Positions 296 to 40,234 of a DNA stretch of 64,000 bases are shown one piece after another; position 1 is the first letter of the stretch; the number at the start of each line of letters is the position of its first letter. A program made the translations under genes and the position numbers. Source of the stretch: a virus (lineage: Duplodnaviria > Caudoviricetes); the IMG/VR virus record IMGVR_UViG_2565956520_000001; one strand, 5' to 3'. The notes beneath the pieces are model-generated. The model did no database searches. It was not told where the DNA came from and saw nothing but the letters and a program-made list of their open reading frames with translations.

Positions 296-317
296 TTTGG
301 GTAGCATTTGGGTAGCA
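296..317 (+). repeat. Two tandem TTTGGGTAGCA repeats, putative integrase arm-type sites of the element 2 type
   Basis: Direct repeats at 296-306 and 307-317. The same 11-mer recurs at 40194-40234 just upstream of the element 2 integrase. Confidence 0.7.
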
Positions 318-319
318 AA

Positions 320-358
320 AATAAAAGGGTTTACGATGCTTTTGCAACGTAAACCCTT
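320..358 (-). terminator. Rho-independent terminator downstream of the tRNA 3' fragment
   Basis: Inverted repeat AAGGGTTTACG (325-335) / CGTAAACCCTT (348-358) followed by a T-rich run on the minus strand. Confidence 0.7.
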
Positions 359-366
359 GAATTATC

Positions 367-411
367 TGGTGGGCAATACAAGATTCGAACTTGTGGCTTC
401 CAGCTCCGGAG
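367..411 (-). repeat. Left attachment core: 3' half of tRNA-Arg(CCG) (anticodon loop to CCA)
   Basis: 45 bp identical to 40034-40078. The minus strand reads CTCCGGA (CCG anticodon loop), T-arm ACAAG-TTCGAAT-CTTGT, acceptor strand ATTGCCC-A-CCA. No tRNA 5' half is adjacent. Confidence 0.9.
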
Positions 412-493
412 TCCACGAAAGGGAATGTGCATCATGTTAATTCAGCGAGTTAACACCCATTCTATTCCCTTGAAATATGGTTATTGCTGGTGG

Positions 494-528
494 AAAGGTG
501 AGTAAATCGTGAGTAGAATTTTGACTCA
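494..528 (+). repeat. Prophage 1 integrase arm-type sites (left end)
   Basis: AAAGGTGAGTAAA (494-506), GTGAGTAG (509-516) and an inverted GACTCA (523-528). The same arrangement occurs at 39965-40006. Confidence 0.65.
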
Positions 529-546
529 TTTTCCATAAGTTTTAAT

Positions 547-1269
547 TCATATCTGGTACACTTCCTCACTGCACTTAAAAGTAGGTATTTGTAATTTATT
601 CTCCATATACAACCTAACGGCAGGCTTTAGAATAAAATAAAATTTTTCGATTCTATGGTAGTCATGAAAAGTATGAACATTGATACTATCCTTACCGTGC
701 GCGACAGCACAACGTCCTTGCCTCCACATATCAATTGAAAGCTGTTCAGCATCATCATACTGTTTCTTTACCAAATACTCTTTTAACCACCTTGACCTTT
801 GCTTACCATCCATGCCTATTTCAAGAATTTTAAATAAACCAAGATACTTAAAAAAAATACTATTACTGCTTATAGCTTCTTTATAAAGACCTAAAGCAAG
901 AAGCTGTTCATCTGTTTTTTTTGAATACGAATAACTTTCAAGGTCAACAGGTACACGGCTCCTGCTATGCCCCACAAAATCGGTTATCCCTTTTATTGGA
1001 ATTGAACCACCTGTATGCATAATATCATATATCGCAACATCAAATAGCCATGAAAATTCACTCAAAAACATCCTGCCAGCGATATGAGCCTGATGCTCTT
1101 TATGTGATTTTATGATGATTTGATTAGACAATGCTCTCGGATTTCGGGCTTCATCTTCCCTCTCAATCTTCTCCCTAACAATTTTTAAACTATACTCGCC
1201 ATAAGGAATTCTTATTTCTTCTTGCTTCAAGTAAGCCGCTGAATCAAACGCAATAACAGAAAACATCAC
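547..1269 (-). CDS. HEPN/MauJ-like protein (moron, candidate RNase effector)
   Basis: 240 aa, AT-rich. Helical C-terminal part LGLYKEAISSNS...YLGLFKILE followed by an R-x4-H motif (RCAVAH). Confidence 0.55.
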   Translation of the reverse strand: MMFSVIAFDSAAYLKQEEIRIPYGEYSLKIVREKIEREDEARNPRALSNQIIIKSHKEHQAHIAGRMFLSEFSWLFDVAIYDIMHTGGSIPIKGITDFVGHSRSRVPVDLESYSYSKKTDEQLLALGLYKEAISSNSIFFKYLGLFKILEIGMDGKQRSRWLKEYLVKKQYDDAEQLSIDMWRQGRCAVAHGKDSINVHTFHDYHRIEKFYFILKPAVRLYMENKLQIPTFKCSEEVYQI

Positions 1270-1394
1270 AAATTCCCTACCTTATAATATCTTTATAGTA
1301 TTTCTCTTTTCCAATACCCACCCCACCATATTAATTCAACACAAAATTATAATTTCACATTGACAGACAAACATTACAGCATTACAGCTATACT

Positions 1395-1559
1395 ATGAAG
1401 AAAGAGCAAACCCTATTTTCTATGCGTTTAGACAAAGACCTTCACAAACGAATCAAAATCTTTTCCGCAGAGCAGGAAATGACCATCAAAGCCATGTTCA
1501 TAGAATGTATGGAAAAGCGAATGGCAGAGGCAAAGAAGAAAGAAAAAGACGAGAAGTAG
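1395..1559 (+). CDS. Small ribbon-helix-helix (Arc/ParG-like) regulator, 54 aa, missing from the ORF track
   Basis: Manual translation MKKEQTLFSMRLDKDLHKRIKIFSAEQEMTIKAMFIECMEKRMAEAKKKEKDEK. Paralog at 24608-24769. Confidence 0.75.
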   Translation: MKKEQTLFSMRLDKDLHKRIKIFSAEQEMTIKAMFIECMEKRMAEAKKKEKDEK

Positions 1560-1638
1560 CCCAAATAAAAACGGCCCGGAAAGGTGTTGAAGCACCAAAC
1601 CGAGCCTAACCACAAACGACCTTTACTGGAGGTACGTT

Positions 1639-2526
1639 ATGGCTGGAAAGAACGTAGCCAATTCACACACTTCTGACAACAGTTCAGTTGTCGGTTCCCC
1701 TACGCTTGTTATAGCAGACGGTAAGCCTGTTGTTTCATCCCTTACAATTGCCGAGCATTTTGGCAAACAACACAAGGATGTCCTGCGTAAAATTGAACTC
1801 CTTGATTTACCTGACGATTTCGGACAGCGCAATTTTGCGCCGTCCTCTTACGTCAATGCTCAGAACAAAAAACAGCCTTCCTTCAACCTCACCCGTGACG
1901 GCTTCGCCTACCTAGTAATGGGCTTCACAGGCAAAAAAGCATCAGCATGGAAAATTAGCTACCTTGAAGCTTTTAATGCAATGGAACAAGAACTGTTGCA
2001 AAAGCAAGCTAACACCAACGTATACATAGGCAAAATCGAAGCAGAGCATCCGCTATGGTACAACCATATTAATATGTTCGTTCAAAACGAATGCTGCCCT
2101 GCTCCTGACAGCACAATTTCAAAAGATGATATCTACACCCATTATTGCAACTTTTGCACTCGCAATAATGTTTCGCCAGTTCACCGCGCCCGTCTATTTA
2201 CGACTTTATATTGTCTCACAACCTATGTTCGTGAAACCCGTCCAAGAGTAAACGGAAAGCGGCCTCGTATTTTGGCAAATATTGCCATTACTCCACAACT
2301 GGAAGCTGTTTCAAAACTTTCACTTCGTGACAATCCGCCACCAAAAGTTGTGCAAAAAGCCGAGCCAGTAAGCTATAGCCATGTTCCACAGAACACGAAT
2401 TTAGCCACAGCAAAAAAAGTCATGCTCAAAAATCTGGAACAATTGCCGAGAGCAGAACGCCAAGCAATGCTAATGGCCTACGATGCCCTTATAGAAGCTG
2501 AACATATTTTGAATGGGGAGGCATAA
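1639..2526 (+). CDS. rha: Rha-family phage regulator with a C-terminal primase-like winged-helix domain
   Basis: N-terminal VVSSLTIAEHFGKQHKDVLRKI...LTRDGFAYLVMGFTGKKA..WK..Y..AFN.ME is the Rha signature. GGAGG RBS upstream. Confidence 0.85.
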   Translation: MAGKNVANSHTSDNSSVVGSPTLVIADGKPVVSSLTIAEHFGKQHKDVLRKIELLDLPDDFGQRNFAPSSYVNAQNKKQPSFNLTRDGFAYLVMGFTGKKASAWKISYLEAFNAMEQELLQKQANTNVYIGKIEAEHPLWYNHINMFVQNECCPAPDSTISKDDIYTHYCNFCTRNNVSPVHRARLFTTLYCLTTYVRETRPRVNGKRPRILANIAITPQLEAVSKLSLRDNPPPKVVQKAEPVSYSHVPQNTNLATAKKVMLKNLEQLPRAERQAMLMAYDALIEAEHILNGEA

Positions 2527-2527
2527 G

Positions 2528-2767
2528 ATGAATAGTGATGATTTATGCCACCACGTTTCGGATATGATGTCAGCGGCTTGTTCTCTCGAATACTTGCGAG
2601 ATCAAATGGAACAGGAACACCGCTATGGTGAAGCTTACATATTGGACTTAATACGGAAGACAATATCAGAGGGAGCCGAAGCTTTTAGTATGTACGAAGT
2701 GGAGGAACAAGTGAAGAAGGCGGGGAAGGGAAAACCTGCGGGGGGTCTGGAGTTGGTGCGGAAGTAA
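2528..2767 (+). CDS. Hypothetical protein, 79 aa (paralog of 23419-23658)
   Basis: Starts immediately after the rha stop codon. Strongly similar to the 23419-23658 product. Confidence 0.7.
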   Translation: MNSDDLCHHVSDMMSAACSLEYLRDQMEQEHRYGEAYILDLIRKTISEGAEAFSMYEVEEQVKKAGKGKPAGGLELVRK

Positions 2768-2770
2768 AAA

Positions 2771-2806
2771 AATCCCCCTCTAAAACAATCATTTTAGAGG
2801 GGGATT
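2771..2806. terminator. Bidirectional terminator hairpin
   Basis: Perfect 15-bp stem AATCCCCCTCTAAAA / TTTTAGAGGGGGATT with a 6-nt loop, between convergent genes. Confidence 0.8.
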
Positions 2807-2809
2807 ACT

Positions 2810-3451
2810 CTATCTACAGTCAATGCCTAAGAAATTTTTGCAAACACTGAGAAGTCCCTCTCTTAAAACATCATTTCTTTTAAAGATCTCTTGAATTAAA
2901 TCAATTTCACCGTACATCCCTTCATTACAATTAACTTCAATTTCTGACTCTTTTTGGAAATACGATTCGATTTCAGCACGGAAAAGGCTAGGCAAAAAAC
3001 AACTATATACGGACTTTAACTGTTTCAATTTTAGATTAAAATCCTTCAAAAAAGAATCATCTGGAACGGTTTCCAATTGAATACTCGGATCATTGAATGC
3101 CCCTGTGCTTACTAATATATTATGCTCAAGAGTGCTATAATAGTTATCTGCTTCATCTATAAGTTTTAATAAATCAATAAAAAAACTTTTACTAGTATCC
3201 CATAAGCGAGACTGCTTTTGCCATCTCAAATGCTCATAGTTAATCCACCCCGCAATGCAAGCGACTATTAACATAAAGAAACTACTTAAGATGCTAAGAT
3301 AATCCTTTGCTTCAACATCACCATTTGGTCCCGTAAAATATAAAATAAAAGCAGTTCCAGAAATTATACCCAGTACAAATAAAAATACTGAGTGATACGT
3401 CGGTTTAATCAATCTCATGTGTAAAAGCTCCGTTAGTTCGATTTGCTTCAT
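2810..3451 (-). CDS. AT-rich moron: hypothetical protein with two N-terminal TM helices
   Basis: 213-aa ORF with hydrophobic segments VFLFVLGIISGTAFILYF and YLSILSSFFMLIVACIAGWI. Composition differs from the adjacent tail genes. Confidence 0.65.
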   Translation of the reverse strand: MKQIELTELLHMRLIKPTYHSVFLFVLGIISGTAFILYFTGPNGDVEAKDYLSILSSFFMLIVACIAGWINYEHLRWQKQSRLWDTSKSFFIDLLKLIDEADNYYSTLEHNILVSTGAFNDPSIQLETVPDDSFLKDFNLKLKQLKSVYSCFLPSLFRAEIESYFQKESEIEVNCNEGMYGEIDLIQEIFKRNDVLREGLLSVCKNFLGIDCR

Positions 3452-3497
3452 CCTTAATTACATAATTGAAATCTATATGTTAAGACTTTTATATATA

Positions 3498-4481
3498 TTA
3501 AATTCTCTCTCCCTCAACACTAGTAACATACCCACCACTCCCCAATTTATGAGTCGCACGGGTAACACTCCAAAGACCATTAACCCCATCACGAAAACCA
3601 GAAAGCGAAAGCCTACACTCTGCCCTTAGCTCTGGCCTTCCCGGAAGGCTTACCGAAAGGGATTGCTTACCCCTTTGGAAAGCCTCTAGTTTAGCCTTTG
3701 CCGCTTTTGCCGCCGCTTCAAATGTTGGATAAATATGTCTAATGCGGTGAACTGGTTCCCCTGCTCCTGCAATCTCTTCAATATCTTTCGCGGATTCAAC
3801 AGAACGCCAGATAGCAACAACCTGATTATAGTCAGAACGAGCAGTTATATTTACGCGGTAATTTGTAACTTCTGAAGGGATCAGGGCCACGGTAGGCATC
3901 GCCTTGCCGGAAATAGTTTTACCCTGCCCTTTGTGAGCAAATACAAGCTTGCCACCGTTAGCCTTTGCTATGGCATCATGATCCGCCGCTATGCGGGTAA
4001 GCAGGTGCATATCTGATTCGTTTATCTGGTCGATATGCGGTAACCCTACGCCGGACAAATCAGAAGCAACGGCAGGGTCAAGCCCGTGGTCGGCTCCGAC
4101 GGTTGCCACCAATGCGCCTATAGTCTGCGGAAGCCATGAGCGAGTTTTCTGCGTTTGAAGATGGGAATAGGCCGCGCTCTTTTCCTGCGGTGCGCCAGCC
4201 GCTTTTATGTCCATTTTATCCGGCGGACCGGAAAGCGAAATTTCGTCCGAAACATACAGCCCCATGAAGGTTGCCGCCTGTCCGTACCCTAGCCATACTT
4301 TAAGTTGTCCACCTGCTTTCGGTAGCTTGTAGCCTCTGTCATGCAGGGAAATAGCCAAAGAATCAGACTTAACACCAGCTTCATCAGTTATGGTCAGAGA
4401 TATTAAATTTTCGCGAATGGCTTCGGTTATATCGTTGCCGTCGGCTTCAACTCTATATGCGGGCTTGTGCTTTAATCCCAT
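3498..4481 (-). CDS. Phage late control D / baseplate hub (P2 gpD-like)
   Basis: ITDEAGVKSDSLAISLHDR, VDEISLSGPPD and HIDQINESDMHLLTRIA motifs. Position after gpX and gpU. Confidence 0.85.
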   Translation of the reverse strand: MGLKHKPAYRVEADGNDITEAIRENLISLTITDEAGVKSDSLAISLHDRGYKLPKAGGQLKVWLGYGQAATFMGLYVSDEISLSGPPDKMDIKAAGAPQEKSAAYSHLQTQKTRSWLPQTIGALVATVGADHGLDPAVASDLSGVGLPHIDQINESDMHLLTRIAADHDAIAKANGGKLVFAHKGQGKTISGKAMPTVALIPSEVTNYRVNITARSDYNQVVAIWRSVESAKDIEEIAGAGEPVHRIRHIYPTFEAAAKAAKAKLEAFQRGKQSLSVSLPGRPELRAECRLSLSGFRDGVNGLWSVTRATHKLGSGGYVTSVEGERI

Positions 4482-4672
4482 AAGCTTATTCCTTGATCCG
4501 GTTCCGGCGTGGCAATTTCTGGCAAATTGATTTCAATGCCAGCTTCTAAAGTAGTACCCTTATCAGCAAGACCGGGATTAGCTTCAAGCACGATTACAAC
4601 CGCAGATTCAAAACCGTAATAGTCAAAACATATCCGGTCTAAAATATCGCCGTCTTTAGTTCTGTATATCAT
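4472..4672 (-). CDS. Tail protein X (P2 gpX-like)
   Basis: YRTKDGDILDRICFDYYG...VLEANPGLA...I.LP...LWD pattern. Confidence 0.85.
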   Translation of the reverse strand: MIYRTKDGDILDRICFDYYGFESAVVIVLEANPGLADKGTTLEAGIEINLPEIATPEPDQGISLWD

Positions 4673-5049
4673 TCTTCATACCGTTGAATCTTGAGAGTGA
4701 ATTCCATCTTGAGGGCAATGCCATCCTTTAAAAAAACACTGTCCTTTTCACCGACTGAAAGAATGCACCACTCGTCGTGAACATTACCCAGCCCGTCCAC
4801 CAGCATAAGCGGGTCGCCCTTCGCTTGCATTTTCCGCATTTTATCAATCTGCCCTAGACCGCCCTTGTAATGAGTGTAGATAACACCCGGCAAAGTAATT
4901 TCATCCTTGCCCGGCCCTAAATCCTGCATAGCGGCCCGTTTGCCAATACGCTCAATGGAGGCCCATTTCTGAGCCGTTGAACGTTGCAAAGTTTGATACG
5001 CGGCAGTATCAACACTGAAAATAAAATCGCCTAGTTTCAACATTCCCAT
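4669..5049 (-). CDS. Tail protein (P2 gpU-like)
   Basis: LGDFIFSVDTAAYQTLQRS...W...R.GKR...Q.LGPG.DEITL.G pattern. Confidence 0.85.
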   Translation of the reverse strand: MGMLKLGDFIFSVDTAAYQTLQRSTAQKWASIERIGKRAAMQDLGPGKDEITLPGVIYTHYKGGLGQIDKMRKMQAKGDPLMLVDGLGNVHDEWCILSVGEKDSVFLKDGIALKMEFTLKIQRYEE

Positions 5050-5058
5050 AAGCTATCC

Positions 5059-7659
5059 TTAGTCATGCATGGCAAGTCGTGAATTATCTCGGTCCTGCTC
5101 GTTCATTTTTTCGACAACCAGATTTGCAATATCTTCTTCAGATTGCCCCGGAGCGGAATTAATAACTATATTATTATGCTGGGTGCGCTGGTTATTATTG
5201 CGTGTAGAGGGCTGCACTGTATCGGGCACACGGATTTCCTTACCTTTAGCTGCACCGACTTCGGGTGTTGCTGTTTCAGATGCGCCGACTTCAGGCATTT
5301 CACCCTGTTTCAATCCATGCTTATCCCTAATACGTGTAGCCTTTTCCTTTTCTTCGTCTGAAGTCTGCATGTAGTAATCCTGCATAAGCTGATCGGCATC
5401 GTTATGGGCAGACTCGGCCAATTTGCGAAAATGCTCAGCGTTCAAATCCGCCTCTGCAAGTTGCTTTTTCTCACGTGCAGTCATGTTGCCAACTCCTGAT
5501 ACTGTTGAGCCGACTTCGGGTATTGCTGTTTCGGTTGCTGGAGCTTCGGTTACGCCGACTTCAGACTTTTCACCCTGTTTCAATCCATACTTATCCCTAA
5601 TACGTGCAGCCTTTTCCTTTTCTTCTTCTGAAGTCTGCATGTAGTAATCCTGCATAAGCTGATCGGCATCGTTATGGGCAGACTCGGCCAATTTGCGAAA
5701 ATGCTCAGCGTTCAAATCCGCCTCTGCAAGTTGCTTTTTCTCGCGAGCAGTCATGTTGCCAACTCCTGATGCTGTCGAGCCGACTTCGGGACGGGCATCA
5801 ACCGGATCAAGCAAGGCGGATGAGTCAGCAACCGCCGTGCCGACTTCAGGTGATTCTTTTGATCTAACTTTCGACTTTTCCTTATCCTCTTCATCATCAC
5901 CAAAGCCGAAAAAGCTTGCGACACTGGAAACAGCATCCCCAATACCTCCAAAAAGAGCGGAAGCCTTGTCACCTATCCAACCGAACAAATCACCAATCCA
6001 CGCCTTGATAGGTTCCCAATGCTGAATAACCAGCCCCAATGGGGTAAAGTTCATAAAAATGGACTTAATAAAATCAAACCCTGATGAAACAGCATCACCA
6101 ATCATCGAACCAATATTACAGAAAAAATCGCAAATCGGATCCCAATACTTCCAAACAAGCAACGCCACACCGATTACAGCAGCAATAGCAAGGCCAATAG
6201 GGTTAGCCATTACAGCCAGACCTATAGATCTTATTCCGCTAACGATTGCGGGGAAATACGATGAAACTAAAGGTATAATGGCCTTGCCCACCGTGAAAAG
6301 ATTAGTTGCAAACCGCCCAATTCCAAACGCGGCCTTAACTCCAAAGGCAAGCCCAATAATAATAGCCAAATTATCAAATCCACCAACCAGTGAAGCCACA
6401 GTAGAAACGACGCTTCCTATGCTTGAAACAACGGTATAGATCCCGCGTCCAAATGCCAGAAAGCCCGGAATAGCATTTTTTACAGCATCCCCTATGCCGA
6501 TCAAATCCTTTTTATGAGACTTCACCCAATCGGCAAGTTTTGGGCCATATTCATCAACAAGCGGAGCTAGTGCGCCCCCAATCAAGCCTGAAACTTCCGA
6601 CGCACAAGACCCCACAACTGTAGTAAGATGTGAAAAAGCAGTATTGTATGCAGATGCTCCAGCCCGCCCTTCGTCTGACATGACATTCAAACGCTTTTGC
6701 TGGGCAAGCAAAGCATTAATACCTTCCTTACGAGACCTGATATAACCGAAGAATTTATTAGCTTCACCACCGAAAATCATATCTGCCGCAGACACAGCCT
6801 GTTGCTGATCAGGCACATCTTTCATAGCTTTAGATATTTTTTCAAACTGTTCTTCAGGGCTTAAACCTTTAATTTCCTCATAGGACAATCCGAGCATGTC
6901 CAAGCCGTCTTTAACAGCGGTAACCTCTTCAACCCCGGCAGATTCACCGAGCTTGTTATTCATTTCCTCAAAAAGGTCACCAACAGTGTCTACTTCAAAC
7001 CCTGCTTCTTTCGCTATCCCGCCCCAAGCTTGCAACTTTTCAGCGGAGACCCCAAGAGAAGCAGCAAGGGCAACCTGTTCCCCAGTAGCCTTATTCGCCA
7101 TTGTGACCGCCGCGCCAATCACCCCAACGCCAGCGGCAACACCAGCACCAACACGAGCCGCGCTACCTATTTGGCTTTTCATCTTTCCGCCCGCTTCCAT
7201 AGCGCGATTAAGGCGGTCCATTTTATCTTTTGCTTTATCTAGCTCAGTTGAAAGACGGCGATGCTCCCCGGCAAGGTTATGAGTTGAAACTCCAGCCTTT
7301 TTCAAAGATTTGCTCATACTTTCGAGCTTATCGCGCCCAGCCTTATAAGCTTTGCCCGCTTTTTTAGCGGCTGCTTCGGCGCGGGCCAACTCCGCCGCCA
7401 TCTTTCTAGTGGGCTTAGCTGTGGCTTCGTACTCCTTACGCAACTTAGCAGCATCACGCCGCAGGGCGCGATATTCCTTGCCCATTTTACGAACACCTTG
7501 AGGATCGTACTTTTCTAACAAATCGAGCTTTTTCTTTGCATCCCGGACAGCATCGCCTACATCGGAAAGATCACCGCCCAAGACCTTAATGCTTGAGCGC
7601 AAAGATTCTTTCACGGCTCCGCCAATTTCAACTACTGCGGAAAACTTTTTACTTGCCAC
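5059..7659 (-). CDS. Tail tape measure protein
   Basis: 866 aa: Ala/Lys coiled-coil N-terminus, hydrophobic Gly-rich middle and W-containing repeats. Follows the tail chaperones. Confidence 0.88.
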   Translation of the reverse strand: MASKKFSAVVEIGGAVKESLRSSIKVLGGDLSDVGDAVRDAKKKLDLLEKYDPQGVRKMGKEYRALRRDAAKLRKEYEATAKPTRKMAAELARAEAAAKKAGKAYKAGRDKLESMSKSLKKAGVSTHNLAGEHRRLSTELDKAKDKMDRLNRAMEAGGKMKSQIGSAARVGAGVAAGVGVIGAAVTMANKATGEQVALAASLGVSAEKLQAWGGIAKEAGFEVDTVGDLFEEMNNKLGESAGVEEVTAVKDGLDMLGLSYEEIKGLSPEEQFEKISKAMKDVPDQQQAVSAADMIFGGEANKFFGYIRSRKEGINALLAQQKRLNVMSDEGRAGASAYNTAFSHLTTVVGSCASEVSGLIGGALAPLVDEYGPKLADWVKSHKKDLIGIGDAVKNAIPGFLAFGRGIYTVVSSIGSVVSTVASLVGGFDNLAIIIGLAFGVKAAFGIGRFATNLFTVGKAIIPLVSSYFPAIVSGIRSIGLAVMANPIGLAIAAVIGVALLVWKYWDPICDFFCNIGSMIGDAVSSGFDFIKSIFMNFTPLGLVIQHWEPIKAWIGDLFGWIGDKASALFGGIGDAVSSVASFFGFGDDEEDKEKSKVRSKESPEVGTAVADSSALLDPVDARPEVGSTASGVGNMTAREKKQLAEADLNAEHFRKLAESAHNDADQLMQDYYMQTSEEEKEKAARIRDKYGLKQGEKSEVGVTEAPATETAIPEVGSTVSGVGNMTAREKKQLAEADLNAEHFRKLAESAHNDADQLMQDYYMQTSDEEKEKATRIRDKHGLKQGEMPEVGASETATPEVGAAKGKEIRVPDTVQPSTRNNNQRTQHNNIVINSAPGQSEEDIANLVVEKMNEQDRDNSRLAMHD
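5283..5790. repeat. In-frame tandem duplication within the tape measure gene (two copies of about 238 bp, period 270 bp)
   Basis: 5283-5520 versus 5553-5790, about 9 mismatches by manual count. Both copies encode MTAREKKQLAEADLNAEHFRKLAESAHNDADQLMQDYYMQTS. Confidence 0.9.
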
Positions 7660-8025: not shown

Positions 8026-8027
8026 TT

Positions 8028-33375: not shown

Positions 33376-33378
33376 AGG

Positions 33379-34222: not shown

Positions 34223-34523
34223 CGGTTTTGTCGGAGTCGGGATTAAACTTAGTTGAACGGTACAACCCGACTCTTTCCCCTTCAAATGCACTTCTGACAT
34301 ATTCAATTGCAGCATCAAGTTCTGCGAAACTTAGTCCACTTGCCGAACCAATCATTTTTGCAGCAACTTCTTTGGCACGGACTTCCTCTTCATCACTCAA
34401 ATGGATAAGCGGTAGCATCTTTCCTCCTTCACTTTTAACAGGACGTACGAGCCCCGTTATCATCATATTTTTTAGGCTCCCTCTCCCGACATTCACACTC
34501 ACCGCACGACAAAGGTGGGTCAT
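34212..34523 (-). CDS. Hypothetical protein (start uncertain, probably MLPL)
   Basis: GGAGGAAAG precedes the internal Met; downstream of the Cro-like gene. Confidence 0.45.
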   Translation of the reverse strand: MTHLCRAVSVNVGRGSLKNMMITGLVRPVKSEGGKMLPLIHLSDEEEVRAKEVAAKMIGSASGLSFAELDAAIEYVRSAFEGERVGLYRSTKFNPDSDKTVSG

Positions 34524-34592
34524 GAGTGTGTTTAATATGGTATAGAGGGCAGTCTTCGTTGCAGATTTGGAATTGATGGGATGGAGGGAACA

Positions 34593-34823
34593 CTAGTGCG
34601 CCTCCATTAATGAAGCCTCAGAAGGCAAAGGAAATTTTTCGGGATAAGCGATATGTTGCGCTAATCGAACAACTGTAGAATCTGCTCGATTTGTGGATTT
34701 GATACGACGAAAGGATGCAGGATGGATTGATAGCGCATTGGCTACATTATCCCTGCCTAACTTTCTCTCTAACTGGGAGATCAATTCTAGTGTAAATGGT
34801 TCGCTTCGTTTCATAGAGTTCAA
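34593..34823 (-). CDS. Cro-like HTH protein
   Basis: 76 aa with GRDNVANALSIHPASFRRIK HTH pattern, divergent from the repressor-like gene. Confidence 0.6.
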   Translation of the reverse strand: MNSMKRSEPFTLELISQLERKLGRDNVANALSIHPASFRRIKSTNRADSTVVRLAQHIAYPEKFPLPSEASLMEAH

Positions 34824-34824
34824 A

Positions 34825-34843
34825 ATAGAACCATTGGCTCCAT
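34825..34843. promoter_or_regulatory. Putative repressor operator O1
   Basis: ATAGAACCATTGGCTCCAT. The 18-mer 34823-34840 matches 36689-36706 at 17 of 18 positions. Confidence 0.6.
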
Positions 34844-34900
34844 TTTGTAAAGAGAAATTTGAACAATGACACTTACACCTTTATATGATGATTAATAATA

Positions 34901-35209
34901 ATGAATAGTGAACTACTTGAAAGAATTATTGTGGATGAATTTGCCCAAATAGCTAAAGATCAAGGTATTCATAAAACCAAGGTCGGACGGAAAGCATTTG
35001 GCGACAGCGAATCTGGCAGTAAAAAATGGATATATATCCTTGAAGGTAGAAAGGACCGACGCCCACAATCTCTTACAATTGCTGACATGTCAGATCTTTG
35101 TAATGCGTTAGGTGTTCCTATTGAATCAATTATGTTTAATGCTATTCAACGCTGTAAAAATGAAGTGCAAGAGTTGGCTAATACCCAGCAAACGAAGAAA
35201 TCAGCTTAA
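34901..35209 (+). CDS. CI-like XRE HTH repressor
   Basis: 102-aa helical protein, KDQGI....VGRKAFG and LT...M..LC.ALGV pattern, divergent from the Cro-like gene. Confidence 0.6.
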   Translation: MNSELLERIIVDEFAQIAKDQGIHKTKVGRKAFGDSESGSKKWIYILEGRKDRRPQSLTIADMSDLCNALGVPIESIMFNAIQRCKNEVQELANTQQTKKSA

Positions 35210-35333
35210 AGCTTATATATTCGTCTGGCACGGCTATTCGACTAAAAAACAAGAATCATTATAATGGCCCAGCTACAAACCAGACTAGAAAACTATTAAA
35301 TTTCTATATTGACTCGACTAAAGGCGGTGTATA

Positions 35334-35624
35334 GTGGTATCACTAAGTGATGGCATTGAGTTGAACACGAAAAATAGAAAGCTACTTGCTAAACTTTTTC
35401 GACAACCAAAACCTAAAGATATTAAGTACCAAGAGGTTGAAAGACTACTACTCGGCCTTGGAGCAATAAAAAGTGAGAAAGCCGGAAGCAATGTTGCTTT
35501 TTTCTATAACGGACATATCACACAGCTCCACATTCCGCACCCGGACCCAACATTTTGCGGGGGGCGGATAAAAGCCATAAAAGAGTACTTAATTACAGCG
35601 GGAGTCGTAAATGAAAACATTTGA
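35334..35624 (+). CDS. hicA: HicA toxin (start may be the TTG at 35361)
   Basis: F..P....IKY.EVE.LL..LGA...E..GS.V.F......H.PHP signature. Confidence 0.88.
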   Translation: MVSLSDGIELNTKNRKLLAKLFRQPKPKDIKYQEVERLLLGLGAIKSEKAGSNVAFFYNGHITQLHIPHPDPTFCGGRIKAIKEYLITAGVVNENI

Positions 35625-36111
35625 ATACAAGACCTACACAGGCCAAATTGAGCCAGACACAGAACAAGACATTCTGTATGGTAGAATACTCAATATTAAT
35701 GATGTTGTTGATTTCCAAGGCACAACCATTTCAGAAGCAAGAAAAGCATTTGAGGAATCAGTAGATTCCTATCTTGAGGTATGCAAAGAATTTGGCAAAG
35801 AACCAGATAAGCCTTTTTCTGGAAAAACAACATTAAGAATGGGGACTGATCTTCATAAAAAACTAAATAAGGCTTTCATAACAGGTGGATATAAAAGCTT
35901 AAACAGCTATATAGTTACAGCCCTTGAAAAAAATCTTGAGGAAGAACAGCGAGGAAATCTCGAATGTTCCAAGTGTAAACACAGTGCCGCAATAAACGAA
36001 ATGCAAAGTCAAATTTTCAAGTTCAAAACGGCATTTACAAGCATACCTTCAAGCTCAGCCCCAAACCTCCTCGTTACAGACGACAAAGGTTGGAGCAACT
36101 CGATACAATAA
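35611..36111 (+). CDS. hicB: HicB antitoxin with a C-terminal extension
   Basis: YK.YTG.IE.D.E..ILYG.IL.I.DVV.FQG...AFEESVD.YL..C...GKEP.KPFSG...LR....LH signature, plus a tail of about 55 aa beyond the RHH domain. Confidence 0.9.
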   Translation: MKTFEYKTYTGQIEPDTEQDILYGRILNINDVVDFQGTTISEARKAFEESVDSYLEVCKEFGKEPDKPFSGKTTLRMGTDLHKKLNKAFITGGYKSLNSYIVTALEKNLEEEQRGNLECSKCKHSAAINEMQSQIFKFKTAFTSIPSSSAPNLLVTDDKGWSNSIQ

Positions 36112-36555
36112 ATGAGGCATAAGATGAACCCCATAAGCACCATATTCACCATTATAGACTTGAATTACAAAACATATGAACTCAAATCGGCAACTTACAC
36201 TGGCCAAAATGATATAAGTACTAAATTTAGAATAAATAAGACCAGCAACCTAATATCCGTGAGACTCACCTACACAACGGCTGAAAATGCATTCCCCTTT
36301 TTCTTGAATACAACAGGAGAACTTACAAGTCAGTATAAAAAATTAGGCAATGCAAACCAAATAGTAGAAAGCTTAATAACAGTACTGATACCCATTTTGT
36401 ATGACAACATAAGAGCTACAATTGGATCATTGACACTCATTGGAGGTCATCAAGCTTTTTTAGGTGCATCACGCTCTGAGATCATTGCAAACCACTCAAC
36501 ACCTGACCACAAAAAACTCCTAAAGCAACAAGCAACCCAAATGCTCAAGTCATAA
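36112..36555 (+). CDS. Divergent SecB-like chaperone candidate
   Basis: ATG abuts the hicB stop. Beta-rich N-terminus, then VLIPILYDNIRATIGSLTLIGG, resembling the SecB-like (I/L)L(F/Y)PY.R..I..LT...G helix. Confidence 0.5.
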   Translation: MRHKMNPISTIFTIIDLNYKTYELKSATYTGQNDISTKFRINKTSNLISVRLTYTTAENAFPFFLNTTGELTSQYKKLGNANQIVESLITVLIPILYDNIRATIGSLTLIGGHQAFLGASRSEIIANHSTPDHKKLLKQQATQMLKS

Positions 36556-36577
36556 CTACCCCTCACGAATTCAACTT

Positions 36578-36608
36578 AGAAACCCCCGCCCCCGCGGGGT
36601 TTTCTTTT
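36578..36608 (+). terminator. Terminator of the hicAB-chaperone operon
   Basis: CCCCGC-CCCC-GCGGGG stem-loop followed by TTTTCTTTT. Confidence 0.75.
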
Positions 36609-36657
36609 GCCCAATTACCAGTGTAATCCCCACAGATAGCAAAACTGCCCCATGTAT

Positions 36658-36712
36658 TTTGAGCCAATGGATCTATTTTTATGTTGACAAATAGATCCAT
36701 TGGCTCTATTTT
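36658..36712 (+). promoter_or_regulatory. Promoter with two flanking operators (O2 and O3) for the rightward early operon
   Basis: Perfect 18-bp inverted repeat (36661-36678 / 36689-36706) around TTGACA (36684-36689), with TATTTT 17 bp downstream. Confidence 0.65.
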
Positions 36713-36853
36713 TAATTCTACACAACGACCACAAGACCAAACGCACCGCGCGAAACATCCGGAACAAGTACGCCTTGAATCAACGTGTGAATTGATTTTC
36801 AAATTATTCGAAGTCTGTGAAGGACTGCATAGATACAGATACCTCCTCACAAC

Positions 36854-37159
36854 TTGGGTGTGCCGGAAACTCCCCTTTCCGGCCTCCTCACAGGCTTCGA
36901 ACAAGAAAACGGAGATAAGATGTGCCTACATGTAATCTTTCACCGCACAGTCACCTTTGAAGCGACATGCACTTATTGCGGCGCACATGAATGGCTGACC
37001 ACTGAAAAGGCAGTGACGAAGTTCACCAAAGACCACGCAGACTGCAACAAGCTTTACGAGGCCGAGTATGAGCAATCCTTATGTGAATTACGAATTGGCG
37101 AAAATACAGAAGCAACTTCAAGAATTGCGCCCACACATGACGAACAAAGGCATGTGTAA
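36854..37159 (+). CDS. Hypothetical protein (CxxC motif; start probably at MCLHV)
   Basis: GGAG RBS before the internal Met; CTYCG motif. Confidence 0.5.
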   Translation: MGVPETPLSGLLTGFEQENGDKMCLHVIFHRTVTFEATCTYCGAHEWLTTEKAVTKFTKDHADCNKLYEAEYEQSLCELRIGENTEATSRIAPTHDEQRHV

Positions 37160-37271
37160 AATTGGCGGATTAATAGTGGAACTTACGGACTTGCAGAACT
37201 TTGCGGCTCCGCAGGATCAATACCCGACAGACGAAAACAACTGTCATCGCGGGTTTCATCACAACAGGTAG
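37068..37271 (+). CDS. Hypothetical protein
   Basis: 67 aa, helical, within the early operon. Confidence 0.5.
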   Translation: MSNPYVNYELAKIQKQLQELRPHMTNKGMCKIGGLIVELTDLQNFAAPQDQYPTDENNCHRGFHHNR

Positions 37272-37279
37272 GAGTAACT

Positions 37280-37594
37280 ATGTCAGAATTAAAAATCATA
37301 GATTTGTTCATCATCTGTCACGAATGCCGCAAGGTTTTCACTGGCAAAAATATAACCCTCAACACCCCTTGCCCTGATTGCGGAACAACCGACTTCGCAT
37401 ACATCAAAGCTGAAGGCATTGTGGATGCCGTTGAAAACGAAATGGCCCTTGAAGCTATCCTTGCTCACTCAAACTGTGCCGTAGTTCACGAAGTTGCAAA
37501 TGTAATGGGCTACTCGGAATCCGGCGGCAGAGATTCGCGTAATAACGACAGCCATTTGAAAAACCTGAAAGAATGGCTTGAAGATCAGGAGTAA
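37280..37594 (+). CDS. Hypothetical zinc-ribbon protein
   Basis: CHEC...CPDCG motifs; GGAG RBS. Confidence 0.65.
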   Translation: MSELKIIDLFIICHECRKVFTGKNITLNTPCPDCGTTDFAYIKAEGIVDAVENEMALEAILAHSNCAVVHEVANVMGYSESGGRDSRNNDSHLKNLKEWLEDQE

Positions 37595-37596
37595 CC

Positions 37597-37881
37597 ATGT
37601 ATCGCGCAGAAGATTTTATCAGAAACTGCCCACTGCTGAAAGAAGGTGGCGTTGTGAACAGACTAAATAAAGCTAAAGCCCTTAATCCTTTTAATGCCAA
37701 AAAGGTTGCAAACCTTGGGTGTAGTTCCAGCGAAAAGGCTTGTCTGAATTTCGCTCTCACCCTCTATAATCCCGGCAACTATCCTTTTGAAATAGGAAAA
37801 CTTCTTATCAACGTTTCCGACCAACCGACACTTGATCATGTTGCAGAATGGATTCGTAAGGGCAGTCTAGGGCTGGACTAG
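37597..37881 (+). CDS. Hypothetical protein
   Basis: 94 aa; AGGAG RBS; within the operon. Confidence 0.6.
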   Translation: MYRAEDFIRNCPLLKEGGVVNRLNKAKALNPFNAKKVANLGCSSSEKACLNFALTLYNPGNYPFEIGKLLINVSDQPTLDHVAEWIRKGSLGLD

Positions 37882-37888
37882 ATAGGCC

Positions 37889-38107
37889 ATGTTGAAAGCA
37901 GGACTGCGAGTGCAGGTTAAAACAAGCATCCGGAGACGGTCATACCTAGCATATGTTGATAGGCTCGACCCTCGCGGCTTTTGGGTAGGATTCAAAATTG
38001 TAAATGGACGCATGAATAAAACAAGGCTCTGCATATTCAGACCTAAACATGTAACCGCTATAGAAACCGAAGCTGGTTTGCGGTGCGTTTTACAGGAAAC
38101 TTTATGA
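37889..38107 (+). CDS. Hypothetical protein
   Basis: 72 aa basic, beta-rich ORF within the operon. Confidence 0.5.
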   Translation: MLKAGLRVQVKTSIRRRSYLAYVDRLDPRGFWVGFKIVNGRMNKTRLCIFRPKHVTAIETEAGLRCVLQETL

Positions 38108-38622
38108 AAAAAGAAATCAAAGAAAGATACAAGATTAAAGGCTTTGATTATGAGGTCGATGAAAAAGGCCGCGTGTTCAGCACTAAGCACCATCCCGGTT
38201 ACGGCATAGGCTGGCAGATGATGCCCACTAAGCCGGGCTTAACTCGTATTCCGCAGTATACCCTGCGCCGAGACGGTGAAAGTTTCGTTTTCCGTATTGA
38301 TTTACTGGTAGATAAATATTTTGATTCAACCGAAGTTTTTGACGGCAATTGGTTCCGCAAAATGCGCTCAGAATCTAAAAAGCATAAAGCCCTAATGCGC
38401 GCGACATTCCTTGAAGAGAAAAGACAGACGAAGGAAGCAGGAAAGGCACTAGTAAGACCTACGCCTGAAACGGATATTATCATTGAACAAAAGTCAGCTC
38501 CAAACACTTACATACCTTGGTCGAACACAGAACAGCTTATAGAAAATTGCCGTTTTGATGAAAGCTACTCTGCCGCAATTGGTGGAGATTCAAGAGACGC
38601 TCAAATGTGCCCACTTAGATAA
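38083..38622 (+). CDS. Hypothetical protein with a NUMOD4-like N-terminus
   Basis: Y.V...GRVFS and Y.LRRDG......I..LV resemble NUMOD4-type segments. Confidence 0.45.
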   Translation: MRFTGNFMKKEIKERYKIKGFDYEVDEKGRVFSTKHHPGYGIGWQMMPTKPGLTRIPQYTLRRDGESFVFRIDLLVDKYFDSTEVFDGNWFRKMRSESKKHKALMRATFLEEKRQTKEAGKALVRPTPETDIIIEQKSAPNTYIPWSNTEQLIENCRFDESYSAAIGGDSRDAQMCPLR

Positions 38623-38634
38623 GGACAATTCACC

Positions 38635-39033
38635 ATGAATCTTACAAGCACCCTGCAATCCCACTTAGGCCGCCGCTATTCTGCCGAAGACGTCGCAACA
38701 GCATTTGCGAAATCTAAAAACTGGGTCTATAGAAATGCAACCGCTATCGGCGGTGTTCGCATGGGAAAAGAATGGGTGTTCTTTGAAATAAACATGGTCA
38801 ATTGCCTCACCAGAGGAACAGACGATGCCAATACAGCGAAAAAACAAGACCACGCAGAAGAAGGAATGGTTCGGAAGGATAACCTTGCCGAATGGAAAGC
38901 AGAAAGAAAAGAAAGCTTCGACCAAAAAGGAAGCGTTGGATTGGGAATGTATGATGAGGCAGAGGTTGAGCGAATTATCAGCGACCCCGACCCTTTCAAT
39001 CTCATTACACAGTCTCACCACCAGACACCTTGA
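38635..39033 (+). CDS. xis: Excisionase-like HTH protein, 3' part overlapping int
   Basis: YSAEDVA..F.KS.NWVYR......G.R.G..WVF winged-helix pattern, upstream of the integrase. Confidence 0.7.
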   Translation: MNLTSTLQSHLGRRYSAEDVATAFAKSKNWVYRNATAIGGVRMGKEWVFFEINMVNCLTRGTDDANTAKKQDHAEEGMVRKDNLAEWKAERKESFDQKGSVGLGMYDEAEVERIISDPDPFNLITQSHHQTP

Positions 39034-39961
39034 AGCACAAGTAGCCAAAGGAATCAGCGAAAGTTGGTTTCAGGATAAAAAGCTTGTGCTTAAGGAACTT
39101 CTAAACGCTTCTGGTGTAAAGCCCTTTCAACCTGCGGTTAATCTTGAACACGAAACCGTCCGCAAATTCCTTGATAAAATTGCCACGCTAAAAACGGGGC
39201 ATAGGGCCAACAGATACCGCCGCCATATTCTTAGAATGTGGTCATGGGGCAAGACGGCCCGACTTATATCCGGCGAGTGCCCTTGGGATGTTGAGAAATA
39301 CAAAGAAGTGCGGAACCCTCGTTATATCCCTTCTGAAGACGACTTCTGGAAGGTGTACGAAATAGCTGATCAGGTTCCGGACGGTTCAAGCCACAGAACA
39401 GGTGTTTACAATTCTGAGCCGCACCGTAAAACGATCCTGCTTACATTCCTTCATACAGCCGCCAGAAAATCAGAGATATTTGATCTCAAAAAAGAAGACC
39501 TCGACTTATCAGCCCGTAAAATACGTTTATGGACTGCCAAGCGTGACGGCGGCGTGGAATATGATTGGGTTCCAATGACTGGAATTCTGCACGATGAGCT
39601 TGAAAAGCACCTTGCCCGGCAAAAGCTTGAATTCCCATTCACGGATTACGTGTTCGTGAACCCTGCAACCGGACTCAATTATTCCAGCGTAAGCAAAATG
39701 ATGGAAAGATTGTGTAAACGGGCTGGAGTAAAGCATTTTGGCTTCCACGCTATCCGACACCTCACCGCGTCGATTCTAGATAGCAAGATGGTGCCTATGG
39801 CTGATATTCAGGCCATACTACGGCACAAGTCTATGGAAGTGACCGCAAAGTACGTTCATTCCATAAGAGGCGCGCGCGTTGAGCTGGATAAGGTGTTTGG
39901 AACAGGCAAAGTGATTCAGTTTGAGGACATAAAAAAAGCCCCCGCAAAAGCGGAGGCTTGA
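38825..39961 (+). CDS. int: Tyrosine integrase of prophage 1
   Basis: TAARKSEI (R), TAKR (K), FHAIRH (HxxR), LRHK and KYVH (Y). Adjacent to the right att. Confidence 0.93.
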   Translation: MPIQRKNKTTQKKEWFGRITLPNGKQKEKKASTKKEALDWECMMRQRLSELSATPTLSISLHSLTTRHLEAQVAKGISESWFQDKKLVLKELLNASGVKPFQPAVNLEHETVRKFLDKIATLKTGHRANRYRRHILRMWSWGKTARLISGECPWDVEKYKEVRNPRYIPSEDDFWKVYEIADQVPDGSSHRTGVYNSEPHRKTILLTFLHTAARKSEIFDLKKEDLDLSARKIRLWTAKRDGGVEYDWVPMTGILHDELEKHLARQKLEFPFTDYVFVNPATGLNYSSVSKMMERLCKRAGVKHFGFHAIRHLTASILDSKMVPMADIQAILRHKSMEVTAKYVHSIRGARVELDKVFGTGKVIQFEDIKKAPAKAEA

Positions 39962-39964
39962 AAT

Positions 39965-40006
39965 AAAGGTGAGTAAAGCAGTGAGTAAAGCTTACAACCG
40001 ACTCAC
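39965..40006 (+). repeat. Prophage 1 integrase arm-type sites (right end)
   Basis: AAAGGTGAGTAAA (39965-39977), GTGAGTAAA (39981-39989) and an inverted GACTCAC (40000-40006). Confidence 0.65.
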
Positions 40007-40033
40007 TATTTAGCTCTAAACCCTTGAAATAAT

Positions 40034-40078
40034 TGGTGGGCAATACAAGATTCGAACTTGTGGCTTCCAGCTCCGGAG
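40034..40078 (-). repeat. Right attachment core: 3' half of tRNA-Arg(CCG)
   Basis: Identical to 367-411. No tRNA 5' half follows. Confidence 0.9.
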
Positions 40079-40185
40079 GCTGTTTTCGCAGTTGTTTCAC
40101 ACATAGCACTCAAGTCAATATCCACTCTATTCATTAATATTATTGATTTTATTTCAAAGACATTGTTTACTGAATCTACGAGCAA

Positions 40186-40234
40186 GGGTAGCATTTGGGT
40201 AGCAATTCCGCATTTGGGTAGCATTTGGGTAGCA
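40186..40234 (+). repeat. Four (TTT)GGGTAGCA repeats, putative arm-type sites of integrase 2
   Basis: Copies at 40186-40193, 40194-40204, 40213-40223 and 40224-40234, immediately before the integrase ATG at 40240. Confidence 0.75.

Follow-up and report, generated by a model that had tools for sequence, protein, structure and literature searches.

The 64,000-nt stretch of DNA analysed here (the window, part of contig C12) lies in a tandem array of prophages of the ordinary kind, at a hot-spot tRNA gene. The array was probably built by successive integrations into tRNA-Arg(CCG), with an old element followed by prophage 1 and then by element 2; we infer this order, which is not readable from the sequence. 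Integrases of the PF00589 type are encoded by prophage 1 (Int1) and element 2 (Int2) and none by the remnant of the oldest element, so that the array comprises two full members and a relic (Table 1). Reading the locus as an array removes the more exotic interpretation of a phage inserted into the attP of a plasmid.

Table 1. Features of the tRNA-Arg(CCG) prophage array (window positions unless a contig or locus is named).
Feature	Position	Strand	Description
IS3-like element, left end	1-94	-	Terminal inverted repeat and transposase start; multicopy; the contig begins here
Unique DNA at remnant break point	96-183		88 nt, single-copy depth 375.5
DnaB-like helicase gene, 5' fragment	184-267	-	28 codons (84 nt); putative vestige of an older element-2-type prophage
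P-arm	296-317	+	Two TTTGGGTAGCA copies, 11 nt apart; putative Int2-type arm sites, remnant attR
Terminator hairpin	325-358	-	Inverted repeat AAGGGTTTACG...CGTAAACCCTT; element-supplied, downstream of the tRNA 3' end
Left core	367-411	-	Displaced tRNA-Arg(CCG) 3' fragment; attL of prophage 1 and core of remnant attR
Prophage 1	412-40033		Tailed phage of ~39.6 kb; PHROG matches
Prophage 1 left arm	498-515	+	GTGAGTA twice, 11 nt apart; kept in G077, G122, G009
int1, tyrosine integrase	38825-39961	+	PF00589 1e-20; phrog_1 integrase
Prophage 1 right arm	39969-39987	+	GTGAGTA twice, 12 nt apart; kept in relatives
Right core	40034-40082	-	tRNA-Arg(CCG) 3' fragment; attR of prophage 1 and attL of element 2
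Element 2, left ~24 kb	40083-64000		Part of a ~53-kb prophage
P'-arm	40186-40234	+	Four GGGTAGCA in two pairs, starts 40186, 40197, 40216, 40227
int2, tyrosine integrase	40240-41346	+	PF00589 9.4e-31
HTH_17 protein	41327-41674	-	PF12728 3.9e-08; candidate excisionase of element 2, by position
ParA-type ATPase	42526-43275		Partition gene of element 2
Intact tRNA-Arg(CCG)	C11; L001 1500-1576	-	On a different contig from the window

Prophage 1 has PHROG matches to tape measure, tail fibre, head/protease, portal, terminase, primase and Int1 genes, and its last 1.5 kb are 97.7% identical to a prophage-1-like element in genome G077. It is bounded by an exact repeat (368-411 and 40035-40078), which with the preceding T measures 45 nt (367-411 and 40034-40078). 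On the minus strand, both copies read as the 3' portion of tRNA-Arg(CCG), beginning in the anticodon loop and ending with CCA. The tRNA identity of the left core ends at ...CTCCGGAG, while the right core reaches 4 nt further (GCTG) into the anticodon stem. ARAGORN detected no tRNA in the 64-kb window, and neither core therefore runs into a 5' half, as had been noted in the first-pass annotation. A third copy of the core, at C11 24002-24067, runs into an intact tRNA-Arg(CCG), the gene that the same annotation had proposed to seek beyond the window. This tRNA gene is flanked on the left by a complete DnaB-like gene (445 aa), the twofold TTTGGGTAGCA repeat and a terminator hairpin, and on the right by DNA that is 85.6% identical to the right flank of the G077 tRNA. 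The intact tRNA expected at one end of a tDNA array is thus present on C11, by way of a putative join to C12, and displaced fragments on the tRNA strand are present for prophage 1 (367-411) and element 2 (40034-40082); for the remnant, no tDNA fragment of its own is on record. Downstream of the tRNA sequence, both the left core and C11 have a flank of the element type (GAATTATC) and the right core has one of the prophage-1 type (GAAATAAT), which is the pattern predicted by successive crossovers inside the tRNA part.

The DNA to the left of prophage 1 derives from an element, with dnaB, arm and terminator, and is not the ordinary chromosome that the first-pass annotation had named as the observation that would count against it. 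Window positions 184-411 are 97.4% identical to C11 23836-24063, including a 142-nt exact repeat (270-411 and C11 23922-24063), and the homology breaks off at 184, after 28 dnaB codons; positions 184-267 are also 98.8% identical to C6 3948-4031. The full gene on C11 matches DnaB-like helicases in PHROG (5.7e-89) and is 33.6% identical to P1 Ban. Judged by these alignments, 184-349 is a truncated copy of the right end of element 2, and the left element is a remnant of ~250 nt (84 nt of dnaB, two arm copies and the terminator) with no second whole element. The earlier suggestion of two related tandem elements at one tRNA thus holds for the stacking but not for the left element, which is only a relic. 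Relatives have an equivalent hairpin that separates the arm pair from the tRNA. The remnant is bordered by 88 nt of unrelated DNA (96-183), for which no match was found in the genome or in any of the retrieved loci, and then by the IS end. The 94-95 nt of the IS end also start contigs C3, C6 and C15 (the last in reverse complement) and are seen again in C11; the flanks of these copies differ after ...CTTCA, and the k-mer depth of the IS end is 1808 compared to ~375 for single-copy DNA; the IS3-family call was made by eye from the TG...CA ends and the MSNRKYSEE start. A leftmost core copy or a chromosomal left flank of the array was looked for, and none was found.

Allowing for up to one mismatch, the 11-mer TTTGGGTAGCA had 8 matches in the window, with 1.34 expected and with none of 100 shuffled windows containing 8 or more. 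Exact copies start at 296 and 307 on the left and at 40194, 40213 and 40224 on the right, where a fourth copy, of the 8-mer GGGTAGCA, starts at 40186; the two left and four right copies previously counted outside the cores are thereby recovered. Ten copies of the 11-mer are present genome-wide (4.19 Mb), seven of them in the att flanks described here (among them C11 23948 and 23959). The TTTGGGTAGCA/GGGTAGCA repeats lie outside both tRNA-Arg(CCG) fragments that bound prophage 1, and the distinct GTGAGTA repeats reported on its inner sides were seen again, at both ends in relatives too. The offset of the P-arm from the core end (-113/-102) is equal in the window, C11, G154, G009, G122 and G208. 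The P'-arm ends 5 nt before the int2 ATG, an arrangement that recurs in L013, L014, L015, G154 and G156. Repeats are thus found on the element side of the core at both ends of element 2 (two at C11 23948-23969 and four at 40186-40234), and they are conserved in relatives.

Element 2 runs on to C12 78157 and presumably via C11 8630-24001 to the intact tRNA. It encodes ParA, a CI-like repressor and a 3500-aa gene, with TerL and DnaB on C11. Int2 is only ~25% identical to Int1, and its catalytic residues (R217, H309, R312, H335 and Y344) are invariant across 14 homologs. In an AF2 model (pLDDT 88.9), strands at residues 11-21, 24-34 and 40-47 are followed by a helix at 54-70 (pLDDT ~90) and a low-confidence linker. 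Foldseek aligned the model with full-length lambda Int (1z1g, 1z1b and 5j0n) over up to 371 columns; a Pfam arm-domain match was not obtained for Int2. Residues 1-70, with three strands and a helix, are predicted from the model to be an N-terminal arm-binding domain.

We examined whether the repeats accompany the integrase in other genomes. Pairs of the GGGTAG[C/A/G]A type were located between the displaced tRNA fragment and the int start in all 14 Int2 relatives examined (27-81% identity), and the motif varies alongside the integrase in distant relatives (GGGTAGAA, GGGTAGGA). There were 30 arm-pair loci in 21 of 201 family genomes; half of the loci (15/30) have the 3' end of an intact tRNA at a distance of 48-51 nt, with 7 anticodon types represented, and 4/30 are 5-39 nt upstream of an Int2 homolog. 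Because the pairs track the Int2 family over at least 7 tRNA targets at set positions, the GGGTAGCA pairs are very probably Int2 arm sites, to which the integrase would bind. The comparison of Int2 relatives thus strongly backs the first-pass view of TTTGGGTAGCA as an arm-type site of Int2. In G154, a 4.27-Mb contig from the same genus, the order is tRNA fragment, fourfold arm, int (63% identity to Int2), 49 kb, dnaB, twofold arm, terminator and intact tRNA-Arg(CCG). The G154 prophage is collinear by tblastx with C12 40017-78157 and C11 8630-24100, including just past an 8.6-kb repeat.

An unbiased scan of 26 genus genomes identified a prophage-1-type left joint at this core in 11. The GGGTAGCA arm is located left of the joint in 4 of these (G000, G009, G122 and G208) and other flanks in 7; since only 4 of the 11 adjoin an Int2-type arm, prophage 1 requires no element 2. 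The prophage-1-like element directly adjoins an intact tRNA in G122 and G077. Some flanks at tRNA-Arg(CCG) carry another repeat, of the GTACACAC type, which hints at a third integrase.

The assembly is of the short-read, graph type with contig ends overlapping by 95 nt, and read pairs are needed across the 142-nt repeat, where the K=31 contigs of the source run do not confirm linkage. The k-mer depth of prophage 1 is 377.6, compared to 375.5 for the unique part of the remnant. The join from C12 to C11 crosses the 8.6-kb repeat, which is common to C7, and is based on att-site logic and collinearity, not on reads. For a second prophage with this repeat, the tRNA-Leu(TAG) fragment is on C7 and the intact tRNA-Leu on C6; judged by the att sites, C12 therefore belongs with C11 and C7 with C6.

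The successive integrations probably proceeded as follows. With tRNA-Arg(CCG) on the minus strand and its 5' half to the right, an element-2-type prophage would have integrated and carried dnaB, the twofold GGGTAGCA arm, the terminator and a regenerated tRNA at its right end. Prophage 1 would have entered this regenerated tRNA via Int1 and its GTGAGTA arms, thereby shifting the arm and core copy of the older element to the left (window 296-411). Element 2, with Int2 and the fourfold GGGTAGCA arm by int2, would have integrated in the tRNA regenerated by prophage 1 and produced the joint at 40034-40234 as well as the twofold arm and intact tRNA at C11 23948-24095. Finally, a deletion and an IS insertion may have reduced the oldest element to ~250 nt. 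The layout of arm-core, prophage 1 and core-arm-int2 is the expected by-product of two elements of the same family flanking a foreign one. Excision of prophage 1 would leave an attP-like arm-core-arm-int2 junction, as had been deduced before, and this is right at the sequence level, with the junction located in the chromosome. An episomal or circular element 2, which the first-pass annotation favoured, is unsupported: its own right end, with twofold arm and intact tRNA, adjoins chromosomal DNA on C11, the closed chromosome of G154 contains a collinear relative in integrated form, and prophage-1-like phages occupy this tRNA without element 2 in 7 of 11 genus genomes. We also considered a phage-plasmid with prophage 1 in its attP and found it unsupported; a partition gene (ParA) is present, but a closed circle was not found and is opposed, with the caveat of the 142-nt repeat, by the left flank of prophage 1, which is a truncated relic and not the full end of element 2.

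A different order of events, which is also a tandem stack, is that prophage 1 entered not an intact tRNA before the arrival of element 2 but a pre-existing attP-like joint between two tandem element-2-type prophages, using the attP of another element as its attB. The sequences predicted are identical to those observed, and Int1 could plausibly use such a joint because the twofold arm-core-GCTG-fourfold arm sequence preserves the complete anticodon loop together with 4 of 5 bases of the half-site in the anticodon stem. We consider this order unlikely, as it is less parsimonious and 7 of the 11 prophage-1-type joints lack any Int2 arm; moreover, an arm remnant adjoins a prophage-1-like element in G122 and G208, and G122, which lacks the fourfold arm (one pair-pattern match only), has an intact tRNA right after this element, corresponding to the intermediate state of the sequential model. 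It is highly improbable that the exits of the 142-nt repeat were swapped in the assembly, in which case element 2 and prophage 1 would together make up a circular phage-plasmid of ~93 kb in which prophage 1 occupies the attP of element 2, while the chromosome would keep just the IS, remnant, arm and tRNA. The repeat does exceed the 95-nt graph overlap, read-level linkage was not obtained, and element 2 encodes both ParA and a CI-like repressor. Yet both contigs cross the repeat complementarily at ~375x, the assembler having halted at the IS and the 8.6-kb repeat, and the depth of prophage 1 equals that of the chromosomal remnant. Furthermore, chromosome-scale contigs of G009 and G122 contain the joint between remnant and prophage-1-like element, G154 carries integrated element-2-like elements, and 93 kb would presumably be too large for the packaging of a ~50-kb phage.

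A regulatory rather than recombinational role for TTTGGGTAGCA, in which a different element-2 protein would use it as an operator or iteron (for example to control expression of dnaB or int2, or as excisionase sites), appears very unlikely. The pairs could serve as operators because they are near the starts of int2 (5 nt before the ATG) and dnaB (30 nt upstream). However, the motif accompanies Int2 homologs (27-81% identity) regardless of tRNA target or cargo and drifts with the integrase in distant relatives, the spacing from the tRNA 3' end is constant at 15 loci, the pair is retained without dnaB in G122 and G208, and the modelled Int2 has the N-terminal fold expected for an arm-binding domain. 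The two roles are not mutually exclusive.

The cores suggest a further possible consequence. The tRNA identity of prophage 1 stops precisely where the anticodon loop ends (...CTCCGGAG followed by TCCAC), while the core of element 2 retains GCTG; the element-2-type prophage on the left thus has the 5' anticodon-stem half-site (GCTGG) of its attR replaced when prophage 1 integrates. This shorter core might trap the older element by disabling its excision by Int2, whereas Int2 might conversely excise prophage 1, a scenario that we regard as unlikely. Recombination between the relic attR (296-411) and attL2 (40034-40234), catalysed by Int2 with its excisionase, could release prophage 1 and leave a live attP in the chromosome. 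The element-2-type neighbour left of the prophage-1-like phage is decayed in all three genomes examined (G000, G009 and G122), which disabled Int2 excision would explain.

For an integrase family of Desulfovibrionaceae and Syntrophales that is still uncharacterised, the comparisons support a precise attP grammar: two GGGTAGCA sites are separated from the tRNA 3' end by 48-51 nt that include a terminator, 2-4 sites abut the int start, and the motif is constant while the tRNA target changes. The tRNA-Arg(CCG) core in the genus is common to at least two unrelated integrases (Int1 and Int2 types), and the locus is a natural set-up for asking whether one integrase can excise or immobilise the prophage of its neighbour. 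The Islander database contains 125 arrays of at least two and 4 of at least three among 3919 islands (PMC4383910). Like those tDNA arrays, this one has a single intact tDNA at the end, a 3' fragment in the same orientation and an integrase per island, and a crossover class centred on the anticodon loop; it differs in that two unrelated integrases (~25% identity) use exactly the same 45-nt core, in that the decayed third member consists of arm and core only, and in being split over two contigs. Similar cases, as summarised in PMC13651849, are phage-ICE tandems and, in Streptococcus thermophilus, the site-specific accretion of ICESt1/ICESt3 and related CIME islands (Pavlovic 2004 and Bellanger 2011, refs 24-25 of that paper), in that successive integration leaves internal att sites with arms of the resident integrase, decayed non-autonomous remnants keep att sites, and cross-excision of neighbours is possible in principle. 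Compared to ICESt1/ICESt3-CIME as outlined there, our case concerns tailed prophages at a tRNA in a sulfate reducer. With heterobivalent lambda Int and its attP (P and P' arms; PDB 1Z1G, 1Z1B, 5J0N), the locus shares a three-domain integrase, as predicted by the Int2 model, and direct repeats about one helical turn apart that flank the core (here two and four). The differences are that Int2 has only 16-20% identity to lambda Int, that its putative arm sites carry the motif GGGTAGCA, that a tRNA 3' half serves as the core, that the P' sites lie right beside the int start codon, and that a terminator hairpin separates the P sites from the core.

In the window, which makes up the initial 64 kb of contig C12, the repeat TTTGGGTAGCA was matched 8 times with at most one mismatch against an expectation of 1.34, confirming the repeats that the first-pass annotation had placed on both outer sides of prophage 1. 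Genome-wide, only 10 copies of this 11-mer were found, 7 of them at att flanks. A fourth right-hand copy, of GGGTAGCA, begins at 40186. The cores that bound prophage 1 are the 3' part of tRNA-Arg(CCG) on the minus strand, from the anticodon loop to CCA, and ARAGORN found no tRNA genes within the window. The integrases of prophage 1 (Int1) and of element 2 (Int2), the prophage that starts at 40083, are only about 25% identical.

Features of the window around the two edges of prophage 1
Feature	Position	Strand	Remark
Multicopy IS end	1-94		contig C12 begins here
Exact TTTGGGTAGCA copies	starts 296, 307, 40194, 40213, 40224		
Cores bounding prophage 1	367-411 and 40034-40078	minus	exact identity over 45 nt
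GTGAGTA pairs of prophage 1	498-515 and 39969-39987		just inside cores
Int1	38825-39961		tyrosine integrase
Int2	40240-41346		tyrosine integrase

A third copy of the core, at 24002-24067 on contig C11 of the same genome, continues into the intact tRNA-Arg(CCG) gene that the first-pass annotation had proposed to look for beyond the window. The DNA to the right of this tRNA matches, at 85.6% identity, what lies right of the same tRNA in a relative, G077, and to the left of the tRNA there are two TTTGGGTAGCA copies, a terminator hairpin and a complete gene for a 445-aa DnaB-like helicase. The hairpin (window 325-358; C11 23977-24010), located downstream of the regenerated tRNA, comes from the element and not from the chromosome; many members of the family have a similar hairpin that separates the tRNA from the arm pair.

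Positions 69529-78157 of C12 are identical to positions 1-8629 of C11 and to the end of contig C7. A displaced 3' piece of tRNA-Leu(TAG) is located on C7, 0.5 kb ahead of the homology to element 2, and the intact tRNA-Leu(TAG) is found on C6, adjoining a third dnaB-type right end. The att sites thus pair C7 with C6 and C12 with C11. By this pairing, C7 and C6 carry a second, IS-riddled relative of element 2 at tRNA-Leu, and element 2 itself is a prophage of about 53 kb that extends from 40083 to C11 24001. The proposed join of C12 to C11 is supported by a relative of the same genus (G154) in which a 4.27-Mb contig contains a 49-kb prophage at tRNA-Arg(CCG) that is collinear with C12 40017-78157 plus C11 8630-24100 in tblastx comparisons. 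Its order is tRNA-Arg(CCG) fragment, four GGGTAGCA copies, Int2 homolog (63% identity), dnaB, two GGGTAGCA copies, terminator and intact tRNA. Element 2 is a phage, with genes for a CI-like repressor, ParA and a 3500-aa product, and with TerL and DnaB encoded on C11. Among cultured phages there were no near relatives of Int2 or of the DnaB-like protein, the best matches being 31% and 34% identical, respectively. In the MAG G001 (locus L013) tRNA-Arg(CCG) is likewise occupied by an Int2-like island, which was not used to model the complete element because its right end has no 2x arm and the integrase match spans only residues 1-262.

The prophage at tRNA-Leu(TAG) (C7 267658-282266, L007, and C6 1-4293, L006) shares a segment of 8.6-8.8 kb that is 100% identical to element 2, is without the region from int to the giant gene, and is interrupted by IS copies. 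At dnaB, homology with the tRNA-Arg elements ends exactly at the start codon, which marks a swap of the att module at a gene boundary. The terminase region of element 2 is duplicated (C11 13053-15128 and 16128-17952, L005; 96% identity over 1.8 kb), with one terL copy truncated and followed by two nested IS-end fragments and the full 495-aa terL kept; G154 has this region in single copy.

The left flank of prophage 1 is 97.4% identical to the matching C11 stretch over window 184-411. This homology stops at 184, leaving just 28 dnaB codons; the 88 nt before it (96-183) had no match in the genome or in any fetched locus, and the IS body was not found in any of the contigs searched, which did not include C18 (1889 nt). 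Since the dnaB homology is cut short and preceded by unmatched DNA and an IS end, the flank is a relic, about 250 nt long, of an element-2-type prophage's right end. The earlier view that this flank derives from an element rather than from ordinary chromosome thus holds, whereas a whole second tandem element does not, only the short relic being present. We rejected the 2x arm as a part of prophage 1 or of the native chromosome, given that G077, G203 and five other genomes have prophage-1-type joints without it. Searches with the left flanks of G077, G175, G154, G122 and G009 gave only scattered or short matches, with no placement of the chromosomal left flank and no left boundary of the array.

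The array is best explained by successive integrations at one tRNA. An old element-2-type prophage would have entered tRNA-Arg(CCG), followed by prophage 1 and then by element 2, while the oldest member would have decayed. Just past the 3' end of the tRNA, the left core and the C11 copy are flanked by element-type sequence (GAATTATC), and the right core by prophage-1-type sequence (GAAATAAT), as predicted for crossovers inside the tRNA part. As had been proposed, loss of prophage 1 would leave arm, core, arm and int2 in succession, with a P side (270-411) that matches element 2's own at 100% identity. Identical sequences would arise by a less likely order of events, namely if two elements had already stood in tandem and prophage 1 had then inserted into their attP-like joint.

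The first-pass annotation had also proposed that prophage 1 may have integrated into an episomal or circular element 2. Such a circle of the two would result if the assembler had swapped the two exits of a 142-nt exact repeat (window 270-411 and C11 23922-24063), a length that exceeds the 95-nt overlaps of the contigs. However, C12 and C11 both traverse this repeat, in complementary ways and at high depth, and the assembler halted at repeats beyond its resolving. In the k=31 contigs of the source run on window 1-2000, which break at repeat edges and give depth but not long-range linkage, the k-mer depth of prophage 1 equals that of the unique relic, and the IS has a depth of 1808 versus about 375 for single-copy DNA. 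Moreover, the joint between relic and prophage 1 recurs in chromosome-scale contigs of other species, and the element-2-like elements of G154 are integrated. On the complementary traversal, the equal depth, the joints elsewhere and the integration in G154, we consider the circle very improbable.

An unbiased scan identified a prophage-1-type left joint in 11 of 26 genomes of the genus, every time at the tRNA-Arg(CCG) core. To the left of four of these joints (those of G000, G009, G122 and G208) lies a GGGTAGCA arm. The remaining seven are flanked differently, by native-looking terminators, by a further prophage-1-type end or by a stretch with GTACACAC-type repeats, perhaps those of a third integrase type. 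Prophage 1 therefore has no need of the attP of element 2. The prophage-1-like element directly abuts the intact tRNA in G077 and G122, and in G009 it has on its left the patchwork remains, 12.5 kb long, of an element-2-type prophage. All these genomes fit the rule that the newest member adjoins the tRNA while older members are displaced and decaying. The third repeat set (GTACACAC/GTGTAC, ATATACAC) occurs with a shared terminator (AAAGCCCCTGAAATTCAGGGGCTT) beside the same core in G009 (C1 1033752-1072176, L078-L080) and in the left flanks of G212, G215, G218, G219 and G154, which suggests that integrases of a third family also use this hot spot; the prophage-1-like element of G009 has a right end of this type and not an Int1 end. 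In G207 (L120), an apparent second prophage-1-type right end (ACTCAC motif, ...TTGAAATAATTGG) lies to the left of the joint, and two prophage-1-like phages may stand in tandem there.

We also examined the repeats as candidate arm sites. Each of the 14 relatives of Int2 that were examined (27-81% identity; Desulfovibrionales, Syntrophales and others) has pairs of the GGGTAG[C/A/G]A type in the interval from its displaced tRNA fragment to the start of int, and the target tRNAs vary among them. Scanning 201 Desulfovibrionaceae genomes for the pair pattern yielded 30 loci in 21 genomes. At 15 of these an intact tRNA (Met, Pro(TGG), Pro(CGG), Thr(CGT), Arg(CCG) or Arg(CCT)) has its 3' end 48-51 nt away from the pair, and at 4 an Int2 homolog begins 5-39 nt after the pair; in L060 a 4x array and tRNA-Arg(TCT) are about 150 nt apart, and both ends of a single element are seen at tRNA-Arg(CCT) in G156. 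The motif thus tracks the integrase rather than the tRNA or the cargo, and the GGGTAGCA pairs are very probably Int2 arm sites. The Int2 model (pLDDT 88.9) has an N-terminal domain of three strands plus a helix, which a linker joins to the core-binding and catalytic domains, and aligns along its length to full-length lambda Int; residues 1-87 matched no arm-binding family in Pfam, even at E = 5.

In Int2 (window 40186-40242) and its closer relatives (L013, L014, L015, L048, L041) 5 nt separate the end of the last GGGTAGCA site from the start codon of int (GGGTAGCAAAAAATG), and no Shine-Dalgarno sequence is obvious. Occupied arms would probably turn int expression off, a form of autoregulation. 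Three IMG/VR viral contigs (L085, L111 and L114) contain two GGGTAGCA pairs 209-262 nt apart around a tRNA-like 3' part, layouts that look like intact attP sites with arms oriented opposite to the tRNA. The integrase near the pairs in L085 and L111 is only distantly related to Int2 (23-28% identity), and none was found near those of L114. A comparable inverted layout is present at tRNA-Thr(CGT) in L039, L053, L055, L056 and L065.

It is possible that the shorter core of prophage 1 disables the attR of its older neighbour, or else that Int2 can excise prophage 1. Beyond its being a tandem array, the locus is of interest for these two possibilities and for the arm grammar that is conserved in the Int2 family. 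Tandem islands at tDNAs have been catalogued in Islander, with 125 arrays of two or more (PMC4383910), and PMC13651849 and its references 24-25 describe site-specific accretion that leaves relic att sites in ICESt1/CIME and in phage-ICE tandems. The array at tRNA-Arg(CCG) belongs to the same kind.
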